Below are positions 3,687 through 58,795 of a stretch of 64,000 bases of DNA, piece after piece; position 1 is the first letter of the stretch; the number at the start of each line of letters is the position of its first letter. Made by a program: the position numbers and the translations under genes. The notes beneath the pieces are model-generated. The model saw only the letters and a list, made by a program, of their open reading frames with translations. It was not told where the DNA came from and searched no databases. Where the stretch lies: the NCBI GenBank assembly GCA_039680665.1, contig JBDKSM010000122.1, positions 6,832 through 70,831 of the forward strand. The letters run 5' to 3'. The DNA is from Syntrophaceae bacterium (GTDB lineage Bacteria; Desulfobacterota; Desulfomonilia; UBA1062).

Positions 3687-4571
3687 ATGATTAAAAAAGG
3701 GATTATTCTGGCGGGCGGGTCCGGGACGCGATTGTATCCCATCACCAAGGCCGTAAGCAAACAACTGCTCCCCATCTATGACAAACCCATGATCTATTAC
3801 CCCTTGAGCGTACTGATGCTCGCGGGGGTGCGGGATATCCTCATCATCAACACCCCGCATGAGCAGCATCTTTTCCAGGGCCTCCTGGGTGATGGCAGCC
3901 AGTGGGGCATCAACTTGTCTTATGCCGTGCAGCCAAAGCCGGAGGGGATCGCTCAAGCGTTTCTCATCGGCAAACCGTTTATCGGCGCTGACGGGTGCGC
4001 GCTCATTCTCGGCGACAACATCTTCCACGGCCATGACCTGGTGCCGGGCTTGAAGACCTCCTCACGACAGGAGGCGGGGGCAACGGTCTTCGCCTACCGG
4101 GTCAAGGACCCCGAACGCTACGGAGTGGTGGAGTTCGACGCCCAGGGGAGGGCCTTATCGATCGAGGAGAAACCGGCCGAGCCCAGATCCCATTACGCCG
4201 TCACCGGCCTGTATTTCTATGATAACAGCGTGGTCGAGATCACGGAAAACCTCAAGCCCTCGGCGCGCGGCGAACTGGAAATCACGGACGTGAACCGCGT
4301 GTATCTAGAGCGCGGACGGCTCAAGGTGGTGACGCTGGGGCGAGGGTTTGCCTGGCTGGATACCGGGACCTATGAGTCGCTGCTCCAGGCCTCCGAGTTC
4401 ATCGGCACCATACAGGAACGTCAGGGCCTAATGGTGGCTTGCCCGGAAGAGATCGCCTTTTCCAACGGCTGGATCGACGCCGAACAGGTCGCCCGGCTCG
4501 CCAAACCGTTGGAGAAGAACAGCTATGGGCGGTATCTGCTGAGCATGATCGCCGCGCCCGCCGCAAAATGA
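3687..4571 (+). CDS. rfbA: Glucose-1-phosphate thymidylyltransferase.
   Basis: N-terminus [20 protein letters not shown], with full-length similarity to RmlA. Confidence 0.9.
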
Positions 4572-8584: not shown

Positions 8585-9321
8585 AGCCGGATAGGCCATG
8601 CATCGTCGAGTTCGTCGGTCTGCCGGGGTCGGGCAAGACAACCATTGTCACAAGGCTTTGTGAAAGTGGAGGCATGCCGGGCTTTCTTGACGGACAGGCT
8701 TACGGCGCTCGGTTAGCCTGCCGCGGCGAAGGGCGGGGGCCGCGCCTGAGAAGGCCTCTGCTTGCGCTGATCAAGGCCGTGCTCGCCATGGGCTGGATCG
8801 GCATGCATCCCAAGGCCTTTTACGCCCTTCTCAGGCACACCATAGCCTTGAATCGCCAGCCCCTGGCGCTTGCCTGGAAGCGTTTGAAGCAGTTCTTCTC
8901 CTGCCTTGCGCATCTGACATGGATCAATATCTACCGATGTTTCGCGGCCATGCCGGCGGAATACCTCCTGCTCGATCAGGGCCTGCTGCAGGCGATCGTC
9001 AGTCTGGATCTGGGAAACAGCAGCTTCCCGTCCGCGGTGCTCACGGCGATACCCCTTCCGGATGTCGTTATCTATCTGGATGTCGGCGCCGGCGTGGCTT
9101 CCCAGAGGCTTTTCTCAAGGACCGGCGGCACCAGCCGGCTGGATCGCATGCACGCAAGCGATGCCTCCCGGTTGATGGGCGATCTGGAGAAGTCCTTCAC
9201 GCTGTTTATCGATGCCCTGCAAAGGCTCACCCCGGTCAGGGTCATCAGGATATCCAGCCGCCGGGAGGATACCCCCGAGCATGTCGCGCGCGCCATTGCA
9301 AAGGAGTTGGCATGTCTATGA
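8569..9321 (+). CDS. Hypothetical P-loop NTPase/kinase-like protein.
   Basis: N-terminal Walker A FVGLPGSGKTTIV, with later hhhhD motifs (LLLDQG, VVIYLDV). Overlaps the upstream gene by 16 nt. No precise family assignment is possible from sequence alone. Confidence 0.45.
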   Translation: MGSPLKPDRPCIVEFVGLPGSGKTTIVTRLCESGGMPGFLDGQAYGARLACRGEGRGPRLRRPLLALIKAVLAMGWIGMHPKAFYALLRHTIALNRQPLALAWKRLKQFFSCLAHLTWINIYRCFAAMPAEYLLLDQGLLQAIVSLDLGNSSFPSAVLTAIPLPDVVIYLDVGAGVASQRLFSRTGGTSRLDRMHASDASRLMGDLEKSFTLFIDALQRLTPVRVIRISSRREDTPEHVARAIAKELACL

Positions 9322-9333
9322 GGCGTTGCCACT

Positions 9334-10827
9334 ATGAGTAACCGATCCCTTACCTCGCGCACTTTGGGCGGACTGTTGTGGATCAGCTCAGGCAGCGCGG
9401 CGCATGCCGTGCTGAGCACGATCATCATGATCGTTCAGGCCCGCTTCCTGACCCCTACCGAATTCGGCATCGTGGGGGCGGCCATGATCGTGATCGGATT
9501 TTCCCAGATCTTCAGCCAGCTGGGCATCGGACCGGCCATCGTGCAGCGCAGCGATCTTGCCGCCGGGCATATCCGCGTGGGCTTCACGGTCTCATTCATC
9601 CTGGGCTGTCTGGTCGGGGTCTTGTTCTATGTGCTGGCGCATGCCCTGGCGGTATTTTTTCGCATGGAAGACCTTGCGCCCGTGATAAAGGTGATGGCCC
9701 TGATCTTTCCGATCACCGGCCTGTCGGTGACCGGCCAGTCGCTGCTGCAGCGCACCATGCAGTTCAAGACCCTGGCCCTGATCGATGTCTTCAGCTATGC
9801 GCTGTTCTACGGCGCCCTGGGCATCGTCCTGGCGGTGACAGGCTGGGGGGTGTGGGCGCTGGTGTTTGCGCAGATCGGCCAGGCCGCGTGCACGGCGCTG
9901 ATCATGCTCGTTATGCACCATAAAAAGCTTGGTTTCAGATTCAACGCTTCCGAGATGGGCGAGCTCATGAATTACGGCCTGGGCTTTTCCCTGGCGCGCA
10001 TCGCCAATTATGCGGCGACCCAGGCGGACAACCTGGTGGTCGGCCGCTGGATGGGACCGGCCGCGCTGGGGATCTACGGCCGCGCTTACCAGTTTCTGAT
10101 GATGCCGGCCACCCAGCTGGGCACGGTGGCGGATAAGGTGCTGTTCCCGGTCATGTCGGCGGTGCAGCAGGACAAGCCGCGGCTGGCGCGGGCCTATACC
10201 ACCGGGGTGGCCTTTATCGCGATGATGACCATGCCCTTAAGCGGCGTGCTGATCGTGCTGGCGCCCGAGATTATTTACGTGCTGCTCGGCAAGGCGTGGA
10301 TGGCCGTGGCGCCGCCGTTTCAGCTGCTTGCCCTGGCCCTGGTCTTTCGGACCAGCTATAAGATGAGCGATTCCCTGGCGCGCGCCACGGGCGCGGTTTA
10401 CCGCCGCGCCTGGCGTCAGTGGGTATATGCCGCGGCGGTTTTCTCCGGCGCCTGGATCGGGCAGTTCTGGGGCTTGAGCGCCGTCGCTTTCGGCGTGGCC
10501 CTGGCCATCCTCGTGAACTTCCTGCTTATGTTTCACTTGACCGCCAGCATCGTGAGGATTTCCTGGCGCGAGCTGGGCATTATCCACCTGCGCCACTTCG
10601 TGGTGGCGTGCGTGGTGAGCGGGGCGGCCCTGGCGGTCAAGATGGCGCTGCTTTCCTTAGGCGCGCATCCGGCGGTGATCCTCGCCGCTGCGCTTATCGC
10701 GGCCGCTCTTATGTTCCTGGGCCTGTGGTTCGGCTGCCGTTCCATCTTCGGCGACGAAGGCCGCTGGGCGCATGAGCTTGCCAAACGCTCTGCCGCGGGT
10801 CTGCTCAAGCCGCTTGGGCTTCGGTAA
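9334..10827 (+). CDS. wzx: Oligosaccharide-unit flippase (Wzx / polysaccharide biosynthesis protein, MOP superfamily).
   Basis: 497 aa with about 12-14 TM segments. The N-terminus LLWISSGSAAHAVLSTIIMIVQARFL is typical of the PST family. Confidence 0.8.
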   Translation: MSNRSLTSRTLGGLLWISSGSAAHAVLSTIIMIVQARFLTPTEFGIVGAAMIVIGFSQIFSQLGIGPAIVQRSDLAAGHIRVGFTVSFILGCLVGVLFYVLAHALAVFFRMEDLAPVIKVMALIFPITGLSVTGQSLLQRTMQFKTLALIDVFSYALFYGALGIVLAVTGWGVWALVFAQIGQAACTALIMLVMHHKKLGFRFNASEMGELMNYGLGFSLARIANYAATQADNLVVGRWMGPAALGIYGRAYQFLMMPATQLGTVADKVLFPVMSAVQQDKPRLARAYTTGVAFIAMMTMPLSGVLIVLAPEIIYVLLGKAWMAVAPPFQLLALALVFRTSYKMSDSLARATGAVYRRAWRQWVYAAAVFSGAWIGQFWGLSAVAFGVALAILVNFLLMFHLTASIVRISWRELGIIHLRHFVVACVVSGAALAVKMALLSLGAHPAVILAAALIAAALMFLGLWFGCRSIFGDEGRWAHELAKRSAAGLLKPLGLR

Positions 10828-16048: not shown

Positions 16049-16506
16049 ATGATGATACATCCAAATACTGCCGATAGCTCTTTGATGGAAATCGCCTTGG
16101 AAGAGGCTGAAAAGGCGAGACAACATGAGGAAGTCCCGGTAGGGGCGGTACTAATTGTACAGTCACGGATGTTCCGGGGGCACAACCGGGTAATTATGGA
16201 CTCTGACCCGAGCGCGCATGCCGAGATGGTCGTCATACGGGAAGCGGCCCGGTCGTTGGGGAATTACCGGCTCTTGGGCAGCCGTCTCGTCGTGACCCTG
16301 GAACCCTGCCTGATGTGCGCCGGGGCAATCATTCAGGCCCGCATTGGCAAGGTCGTGTTCGGCGCCCGGGATGAACGCTACGGCGCTTCAGGCTCGCTCG
16401 TAGATGCCTTTGCGCTGGGACTGAATCATACCCCCGAGGTTGTTGGGGGGGTGTTGAAAGAACAATGTAGCACCGTGCTGAAGGACTTCTTTCAGGCACG
16501 GCGTTA

Positions 16507-16507
<1 letters not shown>
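16049..16507 (+). CDS. tadA: tRNA adenosine(34) deaminase.
   Basis: HAEMVVIREA and LEPCLMCAGAI zinc-binding motifs (CDA fold). Confidence 0.85.
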
Positions 16508-16600
<93 letters not shown>

Positions 16601-16616
16601 TACCGATGTTTTGTTG

Positions 16617-16709
16617 GGAGAGATGCCCGAGAGGCTGAAGGGGCACGATTGGAAATCGTGTGTACCGTTAATAGCGGTATCGAGGGTTCGAATCCCTCTC
16701 TCTCCGCCA
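16617..16709 (+). tRNA. tRNA-Ser (anticodon GGA).
   Basis: Acceptor stem GGAGAGA/TCTCTCC, encoded CCA, anticodon loop TTGGAAA, long variable arm, T-arm GGTTCGAATCC. Confidence 0.8.
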
Positions 16710-16726
16710 CCCAAGGCCTGGTAAGA

Positions 16727-16824
16727 GGCCGGGTCTCATGCAATACGGCGCTGCGAACCCCGTCAGGTCCGGAAGGAAGCAGCGGTAAGCGGTACGTCGT
16801 ATGTGCGTGGTAAGGCCCGGCCCC
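16727..16824 (+). ncRNA. ffs: Signal recognition particle RNA (4.5S RNA, ffs), small bacterial type.
   Basis: Contains the conserved domain-IV motif GTCAGGTCCGGAAGGAAGCAGC. The 5' GGCCGGG pairs with the 3' CCCGGCC. It is followed by a GC hairpin plus TTTCGTTT, and sits upstream of dnaX as in many bacteria. Confidence 0.65.
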
Positions 16825-16904
16825 TTATCGGGCCTTTCGTTTATGTCCGGCCGTAGGGCATGGAAACCGTTGCCGCTTACTAAAAATTGGGATATGACGG
16901 GACC

Positions 16905-51583: not shown

Positions 51584-52000
51584 ATGTCGGAGATCGTACG
51601 CTTCGGGGTTTCGCTCGATAATCGCCTGTTGGACAAGTTCGACCGACTGATCGAGAAACGCAGCTACACCAACCGCTCCGAGGCCCTGCGCGATCTCATC
51701 CGCCAGGAGCTGGTCAAGGAGGAATGGGAGCAGGGCCAGACGGTGGCCGGGGCCATCACCTATATCTACGATCACCACCAGCGCGATCTCTTGAACAAGC
51801 TGACCGGGCTTCAACATGATCATCAAGAAATCATCCTTTCCACCCAGCACATCCACCTCGACCACGACAACTGTCTGGAGATCGTGGCGGTCAAGGGCAT
51901 GGCCAAAGCGGTGCAGGACCTGGCCTTTGCCTTGCGCTCCATCAAAGGCGTGCGCCACGGCACGCTCAGTATGACCAGCACGGGCAAGGACATCGAGTAG
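51584..52000 (+). CDS. nikR: Nickel-responsive transcriptional regulator NikR.
   Basis: N-terminal ribbon-helix-helix (VRFGVSLDNRLLDKFDRLIEKRSYTNRSEALRDLI) and C-terminal nickel-binding ACT-like domain with H...HxxC/H ligands (HDHQE, HIHLDHDNCLE). Confidence 0.8.
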   Translation: MSEIVRFGVSLDNRLLDKFDRLIEKRSYTNRSEALRDLIRQELVKEEWEQGQTVAGAITYIYDHHQRDLLNKLTGLQHDHQEIILSTQHIHLDHDNCLEIVAVKGMAKAVQDLAFALRSIKGVRHGTLSMTSTGKDIE

Positions 52001-52148
52001 ACCGAGCGCCGGCTTAAGCCCTTGCAAATGGCGCTTACGCCAAAACCGGCCCTGGTTTCATCGTAACACGCGCGGATATATTATAATTTGAGAATGGCAT
52101 AATAATGGTAAATGTGCTACTGTCGTCTCCATAAAGGAGGACGACACT

Positions 52149-52835
52149 ATGCATATCCCGGATGGTTATCTGTCTCCGCAGACCTATGTGCCCTTTTACG
52201 CGGTTATCATTCCCTATCTGGGTTTTGCCGCCCGCAAGGTGAGTAAATCCATCCGTTCCCGACAGGTCCCGCTCTTGGCATTGGGCGCGGCCTTCTCATT
52301 CGTGATTATGATGTTTAATGTGCCCATCCCGGGTGGCACGACTGGACACGCCGTGGGCGGGGTCATTGTCGCCATTCTGTTGGGGCCCTGGGCCGCCAGC
52401 ATTGCCGTCTCCATTGCGCTCATTGTCCAGGCCCTCCTCTTCGGAGATGGCGGCATAACCGCCATCGGCGCCAACTGTTTCAATATGGGCGTGGTTATCC
52501 CCTTTGTCGGGTACTATGTCTACCAACTCATTTCCGGCAATTCCGCCATTTCCTCCGCGCGACGCTGGGTGGCGGGTGCCGTTGCCGGTTATGTGGGCCT
52601 GAATGTGGCCGCCGTTATTGCCGGAATTGAATTCGGTATCCAACCATTGATCGCCCACGCCCAGGACGGCCATCCGCTCTATGCCCCTTATTCTCTTTCG
52701 GTGGCTGTCCCGGCCATGGCGATTGAACACCTGATCCTTTTCGGCCTGGTCGAGGCATTGGTCACGGCCCTGATCATAAAATATCTCCAGAAGGCCGACC
52801 CTGATCTCTTGGCTGCTTACGGAGGTGCCAAATGA
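52149..52835 (+). CDS. nikM: ECF-type nickel/cobalt transporter substrate-capture component (CbiM/NikM).
   Basis: Invariant N-terminus MHIPDGYLS and 7 TM helices. Adjacent to nikR. Confidence 0.85.
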   Translation: MHIPDGYLSPQTYVPFYAVIIPYLGFAARKVSKSIRSRQVPLLALGAAFSFVIMMFNVPIPGGTTGHAVGGVIVAILLGPWAASIAVSIALIVQALLFGDGGITAIGANCFNMGVVIPFVGYYVYQLISGNSAISSARRWVAGAVAGYVGLNVAAVIAGIEFGIQPLIAHAQDGHPLYAPYSLSVAVPAMAIEHLILFGLVEALVTALIIKYLQKADPDLLAAYGGAK

Positions 52836-53176
52836 GCAAAGAAATGTCCACGATCAATAAATTGTGGCTGGGACTGTGTGTGCTTGCCCTCCTATCTCCC
52901 ATCGGCCTCATCCTGCCGGATAAGTTCAAGGCGGGTTCCGCCTGGGGCGAATGGGGGTCGGAAGAGATTCAAGCCATGGTGGGGTACATCCCCCAGGGTA
53001 TGCAGAAAGTGGCCGATCTCTGGCACGCTCCCTTGCCCGATTATGCCTTCCAGGGCTGGGACCAAATGGGTCTGGGCATGCTCAGCCTGGCCTATATCGT
53101 TTCGGCCGTGCTAGGAATTGCCATTATCGTTGCCGTAACTATGCTTTTGGGCAAACTCGTGCGGCAGAAGGATTAA
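52832..53176 (+). CDS. Small ECF-transporter accessory component (CbiN/NikN- or NikL-like).
   Basis: 114 aa with two TM helices flanking a periplasmic loop. ATGA-coupled to nikM. Confidence 0.55.
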   Translation: MSKEMSTINKLWLGLCVLALLSPIGLILPDKFKAGSAWGEWGSEEIQAMVGYIPQGMQKVADLWHAPLPDYAFQGWDQMGLGMLSLAYIVSAVLGIAIIVAVTMLLGKLVRQKD

Positions 53177-54112
53177 ATGATTCCTGATTGGCTCACACAG
53201 GAAGCGATCTCGATTCCGGGTCCGGTTGCATCGCACGTGGGCCGGCCTGGTTTTGTGGATAGGACCATCGATCATGCCGCGCATATTCTGAGGGATACGC
53301 TCATCTCCGAGGCGGTTGCAAAACGCCGCGGTCTCTTGCAGGCCTTGGACCCTCGCATAAAACTGATCAGCATCCTGGCCTTGATTGTCTGCGTAAGCAT
53401 CCTGCGATCTCCCGTGACCATCTGGGGGGTATATGGTTGTACGCTTCTGCTGGCCGGGGCTTCGTGCGTGCCGCTGCTCTTTTTCATCAAACGCGTCTGG
53501 CTTTTTATCCCCTTGTTTTCGGCCGTCATCGTCATCCCGGCCCTGTTCAATCTGGTCACCCCCGGCGAACCGCTGTGCACGGTATTCCATTTGGCGCGCA
53601 GCTATGACTACGGCCCCTATCATATACCCGCTACCATTACCGTTACCCGGCAGGGTGTGCTGTGCGCCGTAACGTTCATTGGTCGGGTGTCGGCTTCGGT
53701 CTCCTTGGCGGTCCTGCTCACCCTGACAACCCTATGGAGCACGCTGCTCCAGGCCCTTGGCGTTCTGCGTGTGCCCCAGATCTTTATCCTTATCCTGGGT
53801 ATGGCGTACCGCTACATAATCCTGCTGGTGAATACCGTACGTGACATTCATATCGCCCGCAAAAGCAGGACGGTCCGTTACGGTTCCACCACATTCGAAC
53901 AGCGCTGGGTCGCCTCGCGTATGGGATATGTCTTTAAGAAAACCTACACCATGAGTCAGGATGTACACAACGCCATGTTATCCCGTGGATTTTCGGGGCA
54001 GGCCAAGACACTCATGGTTTTTAAAACCCACGACTACGATTACGCCTGGTGTTTCCTGGTAGCCGTCTTCTGTACGGGATCAATCATTATCGACCATATC
54101 ATGCTGAGGTAG
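53177..54112 (+). CDS. ECF transporter transmembrane (T) component (CbiQ/NikQ).
   Basis: Multi-TM protein with a C-terminal ARxxR-like motif (IARKSRTVRYG). Confidence 0.75.
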   Translation: MIPDWLTQEAISIPGPVASHVGRPGFVDRTIDHAAHILRDTLISEAVAKRRGLLQALDPRIKLISILALIVCVSILRSPVTIWGVYGCTLLLAGASCVPLLFFIKRVWLFIPLFSAVIVIPALFNLVTPGEPLCTVFHLARSYDYGPYHIPATITVTRQGVLCAVTFIGRVSASVSLAVLLTLTTLWSTLLQALGVLRVPQIFILILGMAYRYIILLVNTVRDIHIARKSRTVRYGSTTFEQRWVASRMGYVFKKTYTMSQDVHNAMLSRGFSGQAKTLMVFKTHDYDYAWCFLVAVFCTGSIIIDHIMLR

Positions 54113-54144
54113 GGCTGCTTGCAAGCATGGTGAATGAGGCACAT

Positions 54145-54987
54145 ATGCATTCCATCTACCAACTCTCGGATGTCGGCTATAGGTACCATGCCTCTATCCC
54201 GGCCCTCTCAAAGATCAACCTCACGATCCAACCCGGCGAGTCACTGTCTATATTGGGGGCCAACGGTTCCGGTAAATCAACCCTCCTGCATCTCCTGGAC
54301 GGTCTGATATTCCCTACCGCAGGGACCATGACGGCCTTTGGCGAAGTTTTGACCGAAGAGAAACTTGAAACAAATGCTTTTCGCCGTTTTTTCAGAAGCA
54401 GGGTAGGCTTCGTTTTCCAGAACCCCGACATTCAACTCTTCTGTCCGACCGTCTTCGATGAGGTCGCTTTTGGTCCCTTACAGCTCGATCTGCCGGCGGG
54501 AGAAGTTCTGCGCCGGGTGGATGATGTCCTCAATATGCTCGGGATCACGGCCCTGAAGGATCGGACCCCCAGTCAACTCTCAGGCGGGGAGAAGAAGCGC
54601 GTGGCCATTGCCTCAGTTCTATCGCTCAATCCCCAGGTGTTGCTCCTGGATGAGCCGACCAATTCCTTGGACCTGCGCACGCGCCACTGGTTGATCGGAC
54701 TGATCAGTGAACTCAAGCAGGCTGGTAAGACCATTATTACCACCACGCATGATATCTCCATTATTGATAAGATCTCCGCACGCGTACTGGTCATGGATGA
54801 GGACCATACCCTGGCCGCTGACGGAGATCCAGCGGCGATTATTAGCAATCATGAACTTTTGCACCGGGCGAATATCATCCACGAACATGAAACCGGATTA
54901 CCCGGACATGCCCACCTCCAGGATGAGGCCAATCACGGGAAAAAGGTTGTCAATTTGGCGCTGGCCTCAAAGCACGATAAAAAATAA
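54145..54987 (+). CDS. ECF transporter ATPase component (CbiO/NikO).
   Basis: Walker A GANGSGKST, ABC signature LSGGEKKR, Walker B LLLDEPT. Start chosen at 54145 (GAGG 5 nt upstream); the ORF track extends to 54049 and 54127 is also possible. Confidence 0.85.
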   Translation: MHSIYQLSDVGYRYHASIPALSKINLTIQPGESLSILGANGSGKSTLLHLLDGLIFPTAGTMTAFGEVLTEEKLETNAFRRFFRSRVGFVFQNPDIQLFCPTVFDEVAFGPLQLDLPAGEVLRRVDDVLNMLGITALKDRTPSQLSGGEKKRVAIASVLSLNPQVLLLDEPTNSLDLRTRHWLIGLISELKQAGKTIITTTHDISIIDKISARVLVMDEDHTLAADGDPAAIISNHELLHRANIIHEHETGLPGHAHLQDEANHGKKVVNLALASKHDKK

Positions 54988-55261: not shown

Positions 55262-55684
55262 TCAGAACGACGCGGATGTGACTCTGAACCCGAGGGCCGC
55301 CAAGTCGGGTTCGGTTGAGCAGTCATGCCCCCTTTGTTCTAAGGGCGGGATGATCGCGTGGCCGGTTATGGGCCGAGAGACGAAGAGCGGGAATTGGTGC
55401 TGCAGCGCGTTGACGATTTGTTTCACCACTTCGCGTTTATCGGGCGCCAGGGAGTAATAAACCTTGTGCCCCTGCCTCCTGCAGGCCAGGATTCCGGCCC
55501 GCCGGAGGTCCGCTAGGGCATGCGAGGTGTCCGATTGCCGCAGGTGGAGCTTCTCGACCATTTGAGAAACGCAGAGTTCTTCGTGACGGGTCAGGAGCAC
55601 CACAATGTGCAACCGTCGATATTCCGCCAGCACCCTTAAAAAATCCAGAGATCGATGCATGCAGGGGGCCTCGTATCTTTGCAT
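55262..55684 (-). CDS. ArsR/SmtB-family metalloregulatory transcription factor.
   Basis: Winged-HTH region LDFLRVLAEYRRLHIVVLLTRHEELCVSQMVEKLHLRQSDTSHALADLRRAGIL. Last gene of the hydA-hydB-cytb operon. Confidence 0.7.
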   Translation of the reverse strand: MQRYEAPCMHRSLDFLRVLAEYRRLHIVVLLTRHEELCVSQMVEKLHLRQSDTSHALADLRRAGILACRRQGHKVYYSLAPDKREVVKQIVNALQHQFPLFVSRPITGHAIIPPLEQRGHDCSTEPDLAALGFRVTSASF

Positions 55685-55687
55685 TGA

Positions 55688-56344
55688 TCAACTCCGATCG
55701 GTGAGGGCGACAATCTCACCCTGGACCCACAAGGGCGCAACCTCGGCCGCCTCCTCGTAGGGGATGCGGCCGTGCAGGAACATGGCCTTGAAATCATCGA
55801 ACATATAGATGCCCAGGAAGATGTGCACCAGCAGGAACAGGGTCAAGAAGAGGCCCGCGATCAGGTGGATATCGCCGAAGGCCTTGGCCAGGGCGTGCGG
55901 GATGACATGCGGAAACAGCCACAGGCTCAGGCCCGTTCCGATCAGCAGGATGCCGCCGACCAGGATGCAGGCGCCGAAGAGCTTCTGCCCGGAATTGTAT
56001 TTGCCCATGGGCGGCACCGGCACCTTCTTGCGCAGCAGAAACTTCTGCGGGTACCCGCCCAGGACCGCGAACCATTTGACATCGTTCAGGCCGAAGGTGA
56101 AGGCGCGCTTGGTAAACAGCACCACGCGGTCCAGGGCCAAGACGAAGAACGCCGCGGCGTCCAGCGTCAGGACCATCCCGGCGATTACGTGCACGCGCAT
56201 CAGCAGATTCATGGCTGCTTCGCTGAAGGGTTTTAGAAACAACGCGACCCCGGTGGCCGCCAGGGGGATAAAGCTTAAGACCAGAAAGTAATGGAACATC
56301 CTGACCCGCAAGGGGTGTTTCAAGATAGCGGCATGTGTGGACAT
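55688..56344 (-). CDS. Membrane di-heme cytochrome b (FdoI/HyaC-like gamma subunit, PF01292).
   Basis: Four TM helices with conserved His, and the KYNSGQKL motif characteristic of formate-dehydrogenase and hydrogenase b-type cytochromes. AGGAG RBS. Confidence 0.7.
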   Translation of the reverse strand: MSTHAAILKHPLRVRMFHYFLVLSFIPLAATGVALFLKPFSEAAMNLLMRVHVIAGMVLTLDAAAFFVLALDRVVLFTKRAFTFGLNDVKWFAVLGGYPQKFLLRKKVPVPPMGKYNSGQKLFGACILVGGILLIGTGLSLWLFPHVIPHALAKAFGDIHLIAGLFLTLFLLVHIFLGIYMFDDFKAMFLHGRIPYEEAAEVAPLWVQGEIVALTDRS

Positions 56345-56366
56345 AGAACGATCTCCTTTGCTATCA

Positions 56367-56687
56367 TCAGGCCATGGCCCGGCTGCGATCGATGTAACGG
56401 GTGTGCAGCAGTTCTTCCGAGACCTCGCTCAACGGGTTCCCCAGGAAGTCTTGATACAGTCTCGATACGCCCTGGTTGGCGTGGCTGACGCGAACCTTGG
56501 CGTTGGTATCGTCTTTGTACAACCCAGCCGTGCGGGCGCGGATGTAATCGTTGCGTTTGACCGCCATGCGTCTGACCACCGCCGCCGGCAGGGCGGTCAA
56601 GGCGATGAGCGCCCCGCTGATGGACAGAAACTCGCGGCGCGACACGCTCATGGGATTTTCAATGTATTGATACTCTTCGGCACTCAT
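56367..56687 (-). CDS. hydB: Periplasmic [FeFe]-hydrogenase small subunit (HydB) with twin-arginine signal peptide.
   Basis: Tat motif SRREFL. LYQDFLGNPLSEVSEELLHTRYIDRS is close to Desulfovibrio HydB ([26 protein letters not shown]). ATG at 56687 with AGGAGA RBS. The ORF track's longer N-terminus is an artifact. Confidence 0.75.
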   Translation of the reverse strand: MSAEEYQYIENPMSVSRREFLSISGALIALTALPAAVVRRMAVKRNDYIRARTAGLYKDDTNAKVRVSHANQGVSRLYQDFLGNPLSEVSEELLHTRYIDRSRAMA

Positions 56688-56719
56688 GGTTTTCTCCTCT
56701 CTATTTGCGAAGACGATCG

Positions 56720-58000
56720 TTATTTCCAGGCCAGCAGGGGCGACATGGCGCCCAGCCATCCGCTGCCGACGGCCGGGATGGGCTGGCCGCCGCCGTTGAT
56801 GCACCCGCCCGGGCAGTTCATGACCTCGATGAAATGGTAGGGCGAACGCCCGGACAGGATCTCATCCAGCACGGGCGTGATGTTTTCGCGCAGCCCGTGG
56901 ACGACCGCCACATTGACGGTGGCCTCCTTTTTGAACTTCGTGTCCAGAAGGGTTACCGAGGCGGTCTTCACGCCTTTCAAGCCGCGTACCGGCTTGAATT
57001 CCAGCGGCGCAAGCTCCTCGCCGGTCAGCACGGCGTGCACGGTGCGCACGGCCGCCTCCATCACGCCGCCGGTATTGCCGAAGATCGTGCCCGCGCCGCT
57101 GTACTGGGCCAGGATGCTCTCGTCGGCCGCCTCCGGCGTCTTGGCCAGATCGATGCCCATCTCCTTGAGCAATCGGGCCAGGTCGCGCGTGGTCAGTACC
57201 GCGTCGATATCGGGGTAGGGCGTGCCGGAACCGGCTCCCTGCTCTTTGCTTGCATGGGCAAAGGCGCTGCGGAACTCGGGGCGGCTGGCCTCGAACTTCT
57301 TAGCCGTGCAGGGCATGACGCCCACGGTGTAGACGTTTGCGGGCCTCACGCTCCAAACCTTGGCGGCGCCGTAGGTTTTGGCCACGGCGCCGGCCATCTG
57401 CTGCGGCGATTTGGCCGAGGAAAGATGGGGGATCAGCGACGGGTAATTGAGCTCGACATATCGCACCCAGGCCGGGCAACAGGAGGTGAACTGAGGCAGG
57501 GGTCCGGGCTTGTGTCCGGGAATCTCATCGCCGAACACCGCGGCGCGGACGCGGTGAATGAACTCCGTGCCCTCCTCCATGATGGTCAGGTCGGCGGCAT
57601 AGTTGTTGTCGAAGATCATGAACCCGGCCTTGTGCATGGCCCCGTACATGCGCCGCGTCGCCAAAGAACCGGGGGGCATGCCGAATTCCTCGCCGATGGC
57701 AACCCGTACGGCCGGGGCGATGATGCCCACCACCGTCGTGTTGGGGTCTTTGAGCTTGGATACCACGGTGTTCACGGCATCCACCATCTCGTACGGGGCG
57801 CCGAAGGGGCAGTTGATCAGGCACTGCCCGCAATTAATGCACTTGGCGGCATCGATCGTATGCACGGCCCCGAACATGCCGGAGATGGCCTTGGTGGCGC
57901 AATGGCGCTTGCAGGTATCGCAGCCCTTGCAGCGGTGCGCGTCAATGATGATGATGCCCGGGACCTCGCCTGCCTGAAAGGTTTTTGTGATCTGTTCCAA
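56720..58000 (-). CDS. hydA: [FeFe]-hydrogenase large (catalytic) subunit (HydA), Desulfovibrio periplasmic type.
   Basis: Two N-terminal ferredoxin-like 4Fe-4S motifs (CKGCDTCKRHC, CINCGQCLINCP) and H-cluster motifs TSCCPAW, MPCTAKK and a C-terminal CPGGC. TTG start with GGAGG 8 nt upstream. Confidence 0.85.
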   Translation of the reverse strand: MEQITKTFQAGEVPGIIIIDAHRCKGCDTCKRHCATKAISGMFGAVHTIDAAKCINCGQCLINCPFGAPYEMVDAVNTVVSKLKDPNTTVVGIIAPAVRVAIGEEFGMPPGSLATRRMYGAMHKAGFMIFDNNYAADLTIMEEGTEFIHRVRAAVFGDEIPGHKPGPLPQFTSCCPAWVRYVELNYPSLIPHLSSAKSPQQMAGAVAKTYGAAKVWSVRPANVYTVGVMPCTAKKFEASRPEFRSAFAHASKEQGAGSGTPYPDIDAVLTTRDLARLLKEMGIDLAKTPEAADESILAQYSGAGTIFGNTGGVMEAAVRTVHAVLTGEELAPLEFKPVRGLKGVKTASVTLLDTKFKKEATVNVAVVHGLRENITPVLDEILSGRSPYHFIEVMNCPGGCINGGGQPIPAVGSGWLGAMSPLLAWK

Positions 58001-58050
58001 TGACCCTACCTCCTCGAGTTAAATCTCTCCATCGGAGAATAGGTCATAAA

Positions 58051-58077
58051 GTAGCACTAAATAAAAAAACGTGCTAC
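58051..58077. promoter_or_regulatory. Palindromic operator candidate GTAGCAC-N13-GTGCTAC, 51-77 bp upstream of the hydA start.
   Basis: Exact 7-bp inverted half-sites with an AT-rich 13-bp spacer (TAAATAAAAAAAC). Confidence 0.55.
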
Positions 58078-58084
58078 AAAAAAA
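58058..58084. other. Coordinate error: the second palindrome copy is at 58358-58384, not here; the true interval is the next feature.
   Basis: Retained only to flag the correction. Confidence 0.
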
Positions 58085-58117
58085 TAACTCCTTTGAGTTT
58101 TTAATTCCTTGCAATGC

Positions 58118-58309
58118 TTATACCTGAGTCTTGAACGCCCCCAGTTGTCTGTCGGATGCTTCCGGAGAGGCATCCCAGTGGATGTTTTTCTTTTTCAGGT
58201 ATTCAATAAGATCGGCCTCGTGGTCGTGCGTGTGCGGCGTCTCCTCTTCCCTGCCGCAGCAGCACTCGATGCCGATCTGCACCAGCCTGGTGTCCGATCC
58301 AATACACAT
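58118..58309 (-). CDS. Small (63 aa) Cys/His-rich hypothetical protein, candidate metal-binding protein.
   Basis: ATG at 58309 with AGGAGG 6 nt upstream. Sequence MCIGSDTRLVQIGIECCCGREEETPHTHDHEADLIEYLKK, with a CCC triplet and an HTHDHE cluster. Confidence 0.4.
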   Translation of the reverse strand: MCIGSDTRLVQIGIECCCGREEETPHTHDHEADLIEYLKKKNIHWDASPEASDRQLGAFKTQV

Positions 58310-58357
58310 ATGCAACCTCCTTTCTCAATATTTTCTGCATCGCGGAATGCGGTGGTA

Positions 58358-58384
58358 ATAGCACAATAAATATATACGTGCTAC
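58358..58384. promoter_or_regulatory. Second copy of the palindromic operator, ATAGCAC-N13-GTGCTAC, about 50 bp upstream of the small Cys/His-rich ORF.
   Basis: Half-sites ATAGCAC / GTGCTAC with the 13-bp AT-rich spacer AATAAATATATAC, 300 bp from the first copy. Confidence 0.55.
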
Positions 58385-58462
58385 CATATACCGCGGGCAT
58401 GTCTTCGAAGTACGTCTTCTAAATAATATGTCTCCGAAAAATATTGACCTCGTTTTAACGTG

Positions 58463-58491
58463 TTGACGGATGAGCGGATATCGGCTTAAAT
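58463..58491 (+). promoter_or_regulatory. Candidate sigma-70 promoter, TTGACG-N17-TTAAAT, for the riboswitch-metE transcript.
   Basis: Read directly: TTGACGgatgagcggatatcggcTTAAAT, about 10 bp upstream of the riboswitch. Confidence 0.4.
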
Positions 58492-58496
58492 AAAAA

Positions 58497-58670
58497 ATGC
58501 GCTTCAAGAAACGGAAGACGGTGCAAATCCGTCGCGGACGCGCCACTGTAACCGACGCATACCTGCCGTAACCACTGCGGTAACCCCGCGGGAAGGTCCG
58601 GCGCCACAGGGTCGGAAGCCAGGAGACGCCTTGAAAGCGCGGGGCACGACTGTCTCGCGGTCAGACAGGC
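58497..58670 (+). ncRNA. Cobalamin (B12) riboswitch in the metE leader.
   Basis: Conserved blocks GGTGCAAATCC, GCCACTG and a B12-box-like AGCCAGGAGACGCC. A structured GC-rich expression platform runs to the metE RBS (AAGGAG at 58781). Confidence 0.6.
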
Positions 58671-58795
58671 ATGCGGAGTGGTGGGTATACCTGCGGACTT
58701 TTGCCGGAAAGCGCCGGGTCATCCCCTCTGTTTGTCACCCTTGCGAGCCGTCTCTGCCAAAAATAAACGCGAAGGCAAGAAAGGAGTGACAAAAA

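Follow-up and report, generated by a model that had tools for sequence, protein, structure and literature searches.

Which regulator reads a pair of palindromes that stand in front of an [FeFe] hydrogenase operon and a tiny Cys/His-rich open reading frame (ORF) in a Syntrophaceae bacterium? The stretch analysed, here called the window, comprises 64,000 nucleotides of contig JBDKSM010000122.1 (assembly GCA_039680665.1, positions 6,832 to 70,831 of the forward strand). Its host is an uncultured Syntrophales-like lineage, and the closest named relatives of its HydA protein come from Syntrophales and Smithella metagenome-assembled genomes (MAGs) at about 70% identity. The window holds exactly two exact copies of TAGCAC-N13-GTGCTA, at 58052-58076 and 58359-58383, and because 100 dinucleotide-preserving shuffles gave none (mean 0.00, max 0) the pair is not a product of chance. 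Judged from sequence, with a probability of about 0.8, the two palindromes are best explained as operators of NikR, the nickel-responsive regulator encoded at 51584-52000. The original prediction, made from the letters of the window, had proposed such an operator, and the proposal is supported by the geometry of the sites, by half-sites close to the published box, by association with nikR, by conservation and by a further version of the site before nikM.

The first palindrome, a candidate NikR operator of the hydA-hydB-cytb-arsR operon (58051-58077, minus strand), reads GTAGCACgtttttttatttaGTGCTAC in gene orientation, has perfect 7-bp arms (GTAGCAC and GTGCTAC) and lies 51-77 bp upstream of the TTG start of hydA at 58000. 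The second, a candidate NikR operator of the small ORF (58358-58384, minus strand), reads GTAGCACgtatatatttattGTGCTAT and lies 49-75 bp upstream of the ATG at 58309. Its arms, ATAGCAC and GTGCTAC, carry a single outer mismatch, so that the initial description of the pair and of its distances from the two genes holds, while the description of both sites as having perfect 7-bp half-sites is true of the first and slightly overstated for the second. Both sites fall in AT-rich DNA between genes, each ahead of a minus-strand gene, and both have a 7-N13-7 layout with an AT-rich spacer that sets the half-site centres 20 bp from each other. Of the heptamer GTGCTAC the window has 9 copies where 3.3 would be expected; outside the three candidate operators, those at 16467, 22504, 34230, 38157 and 60721 lack a second half-site 13-14 nt away and seem incidental.

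The nikR gene (plus strand) lies about 6 kb from the palindromes and encodes a ribbon-helix-helix regulator of 138 residues with RHH_1 (2.6e-07) and NikR_C (4.4e-32) domains, whose closest solved structures are the NikR proteins of Pyrococcus horikoshii (1.4e-42) and Escherichia coli (1.1e-28); an entry listed under the latter match, PDB 2HZV, is presumably a NikR-DNA complex. The high-affinity nickel ligands of the E. coli protein, which we take to be H76, H87, H89 and C95, align with H, H, H and C in the window protein, and in view of these residues and the two domains it looks functional. Its β-strand RFG(V/I)SL is essentially constant over the nikR loci compared.

Does the motif keep company with nikR beyond this one genome? 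The box described for NikR in delta-proteobacteria is a 27-28 bp dyad, GTGTTAC-[N13/14]-GTAACAC (Rodionov et al. 2004, PMC545781), and a reversed form, GTAACAC-[N13]-GTGTTAC, stands before nikMLKQO and an unnamed gene cluster in Desulfotalea psychrophila and before nikK in Desulfovibrio vulgaris (PMC545781). The canonical GTGTTAC-N13/14-GTAACAC is absent from the window at up to 3 mismatches. A metagenome scan with NikR yielded 80 loci at 63-100% identity, or 79 at 63-93% once L096 is set aside, the nearest relative and almost the same organism (NikR 100%, HydA 99%). Searched with TARCAC-N13/14-GTGYTA at up to one mismatch, the 80 loci including L096 hold 23 sites near nikR (-150/+250 bp of the gene; about 31 kb in all) against 4 in the other 593 kb; two of these 4 are the hydA and small-ORF sites of L096 itself, leaving 2 for the other 79 loci. 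When the near-nikR regions of those 79 were shuffled, they held 0.40 sites on average and never more than 3. By manual count of bases outside the search pattern, G precedes TARCAC in about 19 of the 23 near-nikR sites and follows CAC, in the distal arm only, in about 19 of the 23, in each case as in the window sites. Downstream of the near-nikR sites lie nikM, ExbB/ExbD/TonB genes and TonB-dependent receptors, which are typical targets of nickel-uptake control.

With both orientations of the half-sites taken into account, sites are present at 52 of 83 nikR loci (28 classical, 14 reversed, 10 both), and at orthologous sites, both beside nikR and at hydA, GTAGCAC/GTGCTAC and GTAACAC/GTGTTAC replace each other. 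Counting perfect 6-mer palindromes de novo around nikR returned a mixture of top words (TGGCAC, GTCAAG, TAGCAC, TGTTAC) and became informative only once both orientations and one mismatch were allowed. Across L097-L178 NikR proteins with the same β-strand (RFGVSL) are accompanied by operators in either half-site orientation, and in the 10 loci with both the two kinds overlap in arrays; the pseudo-symmetry of the half-site, GTnnnAC, may be what permits both orientations.

The same loci bear on a second candidate that the original prediction had named, the ArsR/SmtB-family regulator encoded at 55262-55684 (minus strand; HTH_5) as the last gene of the hydrogenase operon. The palindromes would then be its own operators, serving autoregulation of the hyd-arsR operon together with control of the small ORF, with a metal or a thiol as the possible signal. 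The protein clearly belongs to the ArsR/SmtB family (SmtB 5.6e-10; also HlyU, PagR and CzrA) and has seven close homologues among 5.8 billion sequences, and wherever the gene is present it belongs to an operon preceded by the motif, as autoregulation would have it: in the window, L096 and L176 the motif precedes hydAB-cytb-arsR, and L082 and L084-L090 have small ORF-arsR behind it. The ArsR-like gene also adjoins nikR in every case, and in L091-L095 hydB-cytb-arsR is convergent with nikOQM and nikR, as in the window. Against control by the ArsR-like protein, the motif stands at nikR loci where up to 10 kb of sequence hold no ArsR-like homologue (none at E<=1e-3 in L097-L175, L177 or L178), including L177 and L178, where it precedes hydA; in these two, hydAB-cytb comes immediately after nikR-nikMNQO in the same direction, and an ArsR-like gene is missing. 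Pfam gave no match for the unknown genes downstream of cytb in L177 and L178. The motif thus travels with nikR and not with arsR. Geometry points the same way: ArsR/SmtB dimers, which are winged-helix proteins, bind closely spaced 12-2-12 imperfect inverted repeats, whereas half-site centres 20 bp apart across a 13-bp AT-rich spacer fit a NikR tetramer. Further, the cysteine of ELCVSQM is lost in the L082 homologue (ELTIAEM) and, by our own reading of the sequence, the D-x-H metal site of helix α5 is absent. The ArsR-family protein is accordingly disfavoured as the binder of these sites, and we regard its being so as unlikely.

The hydA leaders of relatives bear on the site itself and on a third reading. 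The hydA palindrome is kept in L096, L179, L176, L177 and L178 (HydA 99-80% identity), where it is the main conserved block of the leader; in these five lineages it stands at the same distance from a conserved ribosome-binding site and TTG start, in the forms GTAGCACgattatattatttGTGCTAC, GTAGCACgttttttatatttGTGCTAC, GTGGCACgattattttttttGTGTTAC and GTAGCACgattgttatttatGTGTTAT, and the leaders further upstream are not alignable. The TTG start itself (CATTGGAA) is kept in six lineages. A -10-like block (TATTCT/TATCCT/TACTAT) is conserved 8-9 bp downstream of the operator, which suggests that the operator covers the -35/spacer region. The motif is found upstream of hydA in none of the HydA-centred genome loci L001-L080 (up to 69% identity), suggesting that NikR control of hydA would be restricted to a close clade with HydA at least 80% identical. 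In the Smithella MAG L001 (HydA 69%) a different, small gene, which we take to be ModE-like, lies upstream of hydA (9436-9789), with an everted GTGCTA-N15-TAGCAC further upstream at 9301-9327; hydrogenase control seems different in the Smithella lineage.

The core of the palindromes invites confusion with a well-known heat-shock element. TAGCAC-N13-GTGCTA is the exact core of CIRCE (controlling inverted repeat of chaperone expression), TTAGCACTC-N9-GAGTGCTAA, all 12 core bases being equal, and the pattern used here also caught true CIRCE elements in the Clostridiales MAG L056, in front of genes that, from their N-terminal sequences, are presumably htpG and hrcA. The sites could on this account be divergent CIRCE elements bound by HrcA, making the hydrogenase and the small ORF part of a heat-shock regulon. 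Beyond the core the likeness fades: of the 18 CIRCE positions, the two sites agree with no more than 13 and 12 (manual count), and the window contains no CIRCE consensus within 3 mismatches. The flanks deviate alike in all lineages, with G and not T at position 1, CACGT/CACGA and not CACTC, and TT/TA and not GA; delta-proteobacterial CIRCE sites, by contrast, are near-perfect (PMC545781, Table 8). Variants met at orthologous sites are GTGGCAC, GTGTTAC and TAACAC, words of the NikR box and not of CIRCE. The genes behind the motif are hydA, the small Cys/His-rich ORF, nik genes and TonB genes, not chaperones, and hrcA was not found among the annotated part of the window ORFs. Binding of these sites by HrcA is very improbable, and the resemblance of the cores appears coincidental.

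A weaker candidate NikR operator lies in the nikR-nikM spacer (52094-52120, plus strand; ATGGCAT-N13-GTGCTAC, ATGGCATaataatggtaaatGTGCTAC), 29-55 bp upstream of the nikM ATG, its proximal half perfect and its distal half degenerate (3 mismatches of 14). Matches at this mismatch level number 3 in the window against 1.35 expected, which is not significant alone. The site recurs at the same position in L084, L091-93, L096, L097 and L176-L178, with the proximal half kept (GTGCTAY or GTGTTAT) and the distal half varying (TTGCTAC, TTGCCAC, TTGTCAC, TGGCAC). What speaks for the weak half-site that the original prediction had seen before nikM is its conserved position and proximal half, not the count in the window. 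About 25 nt further upstream stands an isolated GTAACAC(G) half-site (52063-52069, plus strand), and a GTRRCACG half-site occupies the same place in all relatives as GTAACACG, GGAACACG, GTGGCACG, GTAGCACG or GTGTCACG; from this arrangement, the isolated half-site and the weak operator probably form a half-site array. The nik cassette of L096 (10415-13200, against 52030-54987 in the window) differs from that of the window, being of a fused CbiM-PDGLE type with NikM 34% identical, and its divergence right after the conserved GTAACACG half-site suggests replacement of the cassette by recombination.

The nikM versions also help to decide whether the inverted repeats act as DNA at all. As RNA hairpins on the sense strand they might form a leader, an attenuator or a weak terminator between the small ORF and hydA, and not a protein-binding site; the sense-strand folds reach -11.5 kcal/mol (z = -5.2) and -19.7 kcal/mol (z = -3.7), and, judged by eye, L177 and L178 differ in the arms by transitions that would leave G-U pairs in place. 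Any palindrome folds, however, and no U-tract terminator was detected. The 13-nt loops are AT-rich and variable in sequence yet fixed in length, the nikM versions (TTGCTAC...GTGCTAC, TGGCAT...GTGCTA) keep the half-site words in forms that cannot pair, and next to nikR the words occur in both relative orientations. A role as RNA structure is, in consequence, about as improbable as one in heat shock.

Several points weigh against assigning the sites to NikR. To the constant place of the ArsR-like gene behind the motif and the identity of the core with that of CIRCE must be added that the best matches stand before hydA and before the small ORF, while nikM, the canonical target of NikR, has a degenerate one. 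The delta-proteobacterial NikR box is itself a prediction of comparative genomics, and no experimental validation of it was found in the literature searched. Finally, a scan of 57900-58800 for sigma-70 consensus promoters found nothing, so that the probable overlap of operator and promoter is read from the conserved -10-like block.

From the sequence, geometry and conservation of the sites and their association with nikR we infer binding by NikR, dependence on nickel, repression rather than activation, and a nickel-sparing rationale. A NikR tetramer, with a ribbon-helix-helix dimer at each end, would contact the GTAGCAC and GTGCTAC half-sites two helical turns apart and, bound 49-77 bp upstream of the starts, would cover the -35/spacer region and block RNA polymerase. 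By analogy with known NikR systems, repression by nickel-loaded NikR would prevail when nickel is sufficient and be released under limitation. With nickel plentiful, the complex would repress the nikMNQO importer, through the weaker and more degenerate site, along with the periplasmic, cytochrome-b-linked [FeFe] operon hydA-hydB-cytb-arsR and the Cys/His-rich protein of 63 residues; with nickel scarce, importer, hydrogenase and small protein would be derepressed, providing a nickel-independent hydrogenase, more uptake and probable metal handling.

The genes concerned are consistent with the parts they would play. The nikR gene, the nickel/cobalt importer of the energy-coupling factor (ECF) type and the ArsR-family gene named at the outset are all present, their Pfam domains and coordinates in agreement. 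The importer is of the nikMNQO type (52149-54987, plus strand; Pfam matches to CbiM, PDGLE, CbiQ and an ATP-binding cassette (ABC) ATPase). On the minus strand, hydA (56720-58000) encodes the [FeFe] hydrogenase large subunit of 426 residues with Fe_hyd_lg_C (3.3e-81) and Fer4 domains, and its homologues carry names such as group A or periplasmic [Fe] hydrogenase; hydB (56367-56804) encodes the small subunit (Fe_hyd_SSU 2.7e-21) with a signal of the twin-arginine (Tat) type, the TAT_signal match being weak (0.00098, under Pfam's cutoff), and its true start probably lies downstream of the listed GTG. The third gene (55688-56344) encodes a cytochrome b subunit of the Ni_hydr_CYTB family (Pfam), the probable membrane anchor of the hydrogenase. 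The weak Tat-signal match together with the cytochrome b implies a periplasmic, membrane-anchored, quinone-linked [FeFe] enzyme. The cytochrome b family is usually found with [NiFe] hydrogenases and is here part of an [FeFe] operon (55688-58000, minus strand).

What the small ORF contributes is a more speculative matter. The gene (58118-58309, minus strand) has an ATG start and a GGAGG ribosome-binding site and encodes 63 residues that include invariant C-x-C and P-H-T-H-x-H motifs, so far as sequence can tell a putative metal-binding protein. Pfam gave no match for it, and with three close homologues among 5.8 billion sequences the family is very rare. In the relatives, homologues lie at 1637-1840 in L082, 4664-4816 in L084 and 9693-9860 in L176, and also in L081 and L083. 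Two settings recur: in L082 and L084-L090 the ArsR-like gene comes immediately after the homologue, with GTAGCACGT-N10-TGTGCTAT ahead of the two, and in L176, L081 and L083 it ends a TonB-receptor/BtuFCD-like ABC operon, after an unannotated gene of 211-214 codons. The second setting is consistent with a role in metal handling. In L176, TGCCAC-N13-GTGTTA (3873-3897) stands about 225 bp upstream of the operon of TonB-dependent receptor, Peripla_BP_2, FecCD and ABC genes that ends in the small ORF; this uptake system may be controlled by NikR and be related to nickel rather than to B12.

The ArsR-like regulator would be a member of the NikR regulon and possibly a second regulatory tier. A wider picture can be offered tentatively, as more doubtful than not: NikR would head a nickel-sparing regulon made up of the [FeFe] hydrogenase and a module of an undescribed CxC...PHTHxH protein (~50-67 residues) with ArsR, in a two-tier cascade from NikR to ArsR, and the small protein would be a chaperone for nickel or cobalt, or else a buffer tied to uptake by TonB-dependent or ECF systems.

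Other features surround the sites. About 65 bp beyond the second palindrome begins a cobalamin riboswitch (58450-58647, plus strand; Rfam RF00174, 74.7 bits), and downstream of it metE, the cobalamin-independent methionine synthase (58796-61072, plus strand). Riboswitch and gene together represent the classic B12-off control of metE, and they share their divergent intergenic region with the second palindrome. Pfam searches of ten other large ORFs of the window returned no nickel enzymes. Elsewhere Rfam places two tRNA genes followed by a small signal recognition particle RNA at 16507-16825 (plus strand), and the SRP54/Ffh gene lies at 28620-30086.

If nickel control through NikR is true, the locus would be a natural case of metal-sparing isoenzyme control, in which shortage of nickel brings a nickel-free [FeFe] hydrogenase into play in syntrophic, hydrogen-cycling anaerobes; no experimental test of this sparing idea was found in the literature searched. 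The perfect operators offer a compact system for electrophoretic mobility shift assays and reporter tests. Likewise, a tiny and almost unknown Cys/His-rich family and its companion ArsR-like regulator are now given a regulatory context. For annotation there is a caution, in that CIRCE profile searches can mistake this variant of the NikR box for a heat-shock operator.

How, then, does the locus compare with systems already described? From the CIRCE/HrcA operator, whose 6-N13-6 core TAGCAC...GTGCTA is identical, it differs in flanking consensus, allowed variants, target genes and associated regulator gene. The operator of nikABCDE in E. coli follows the enterobacterial consensus GTATGAT-[N13/14]-ATCATAC (PMC545781). 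In common with the window, E. coli NikR combines a ribbon-helix-helix domain with NikR_C, and the half-sites of its dyad operator are spaced by about two helical turns, binding of the operator repressing nickel uptake in E. coli; the half-site sequence is unrelated, the β-strand reads RFGVSL in the window and RVTITL in E. coli, and the importer is an ECF NikMNQO rather than NikABCDE. Much closer is the reversed box of D. psychrophila, which has 7-bp half-sites, a 13-bp spacer, the same orientation and 6 of 7 bases in common per half-site, the difference being a symmetric transition at position 4 (GTAGCAC/GTGCTAC against GTAACAC/GTGTTAC). In both, sites lie upstream of nik transporter genes next to nikR, and a promoter region with two sites has also been described (PMC545781); in the window, in a host that is uncultured and Syntrophales-like, the best sites precede the hydrogenase operon and the small ORF and not the transporter.

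The nearest functional parallel is hydAB of Desulfovibrio desulfuricans G20, encoding a periplasmic Fe-only hydrogenase, for which a NikR site GTaTTAC-[N13]-GTAACAC was predicted at -83 (PMC545781, Table 4) together with the proposal that excess nickel represses the nickel-independent isoenzyme (PMC545781). Both cases, each a prediction, link NikR to a nickel-independent periplasmic [FeFe] hydrogenase at a similar distance from the start codon; they differ in that the half-site orientation is opposite and that the operon in the window adds a cytochrome b and an ArsR-family gene and is linked to nikR-nikMNQO. This linkage of nikR, nikMNQO and hydAB within 6 kb, on one strand in two relatives, strengthens the 2004 prediction. 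The original prediction was right in its link to NikR and had missed both the G20 hydAB precedent and the identity with the CIRCE core. The kind of element and the connection between nickel and [FeFe] hydrogenase are thus already known, having been predicted computationally in 2004 (PMC545781); what is new, as far as the sequences allow, is the instance in an uncultured Syntrophales-like lineage, the half-site variant, the unusual perfection of the sites, and two new candidate members of the regulon.

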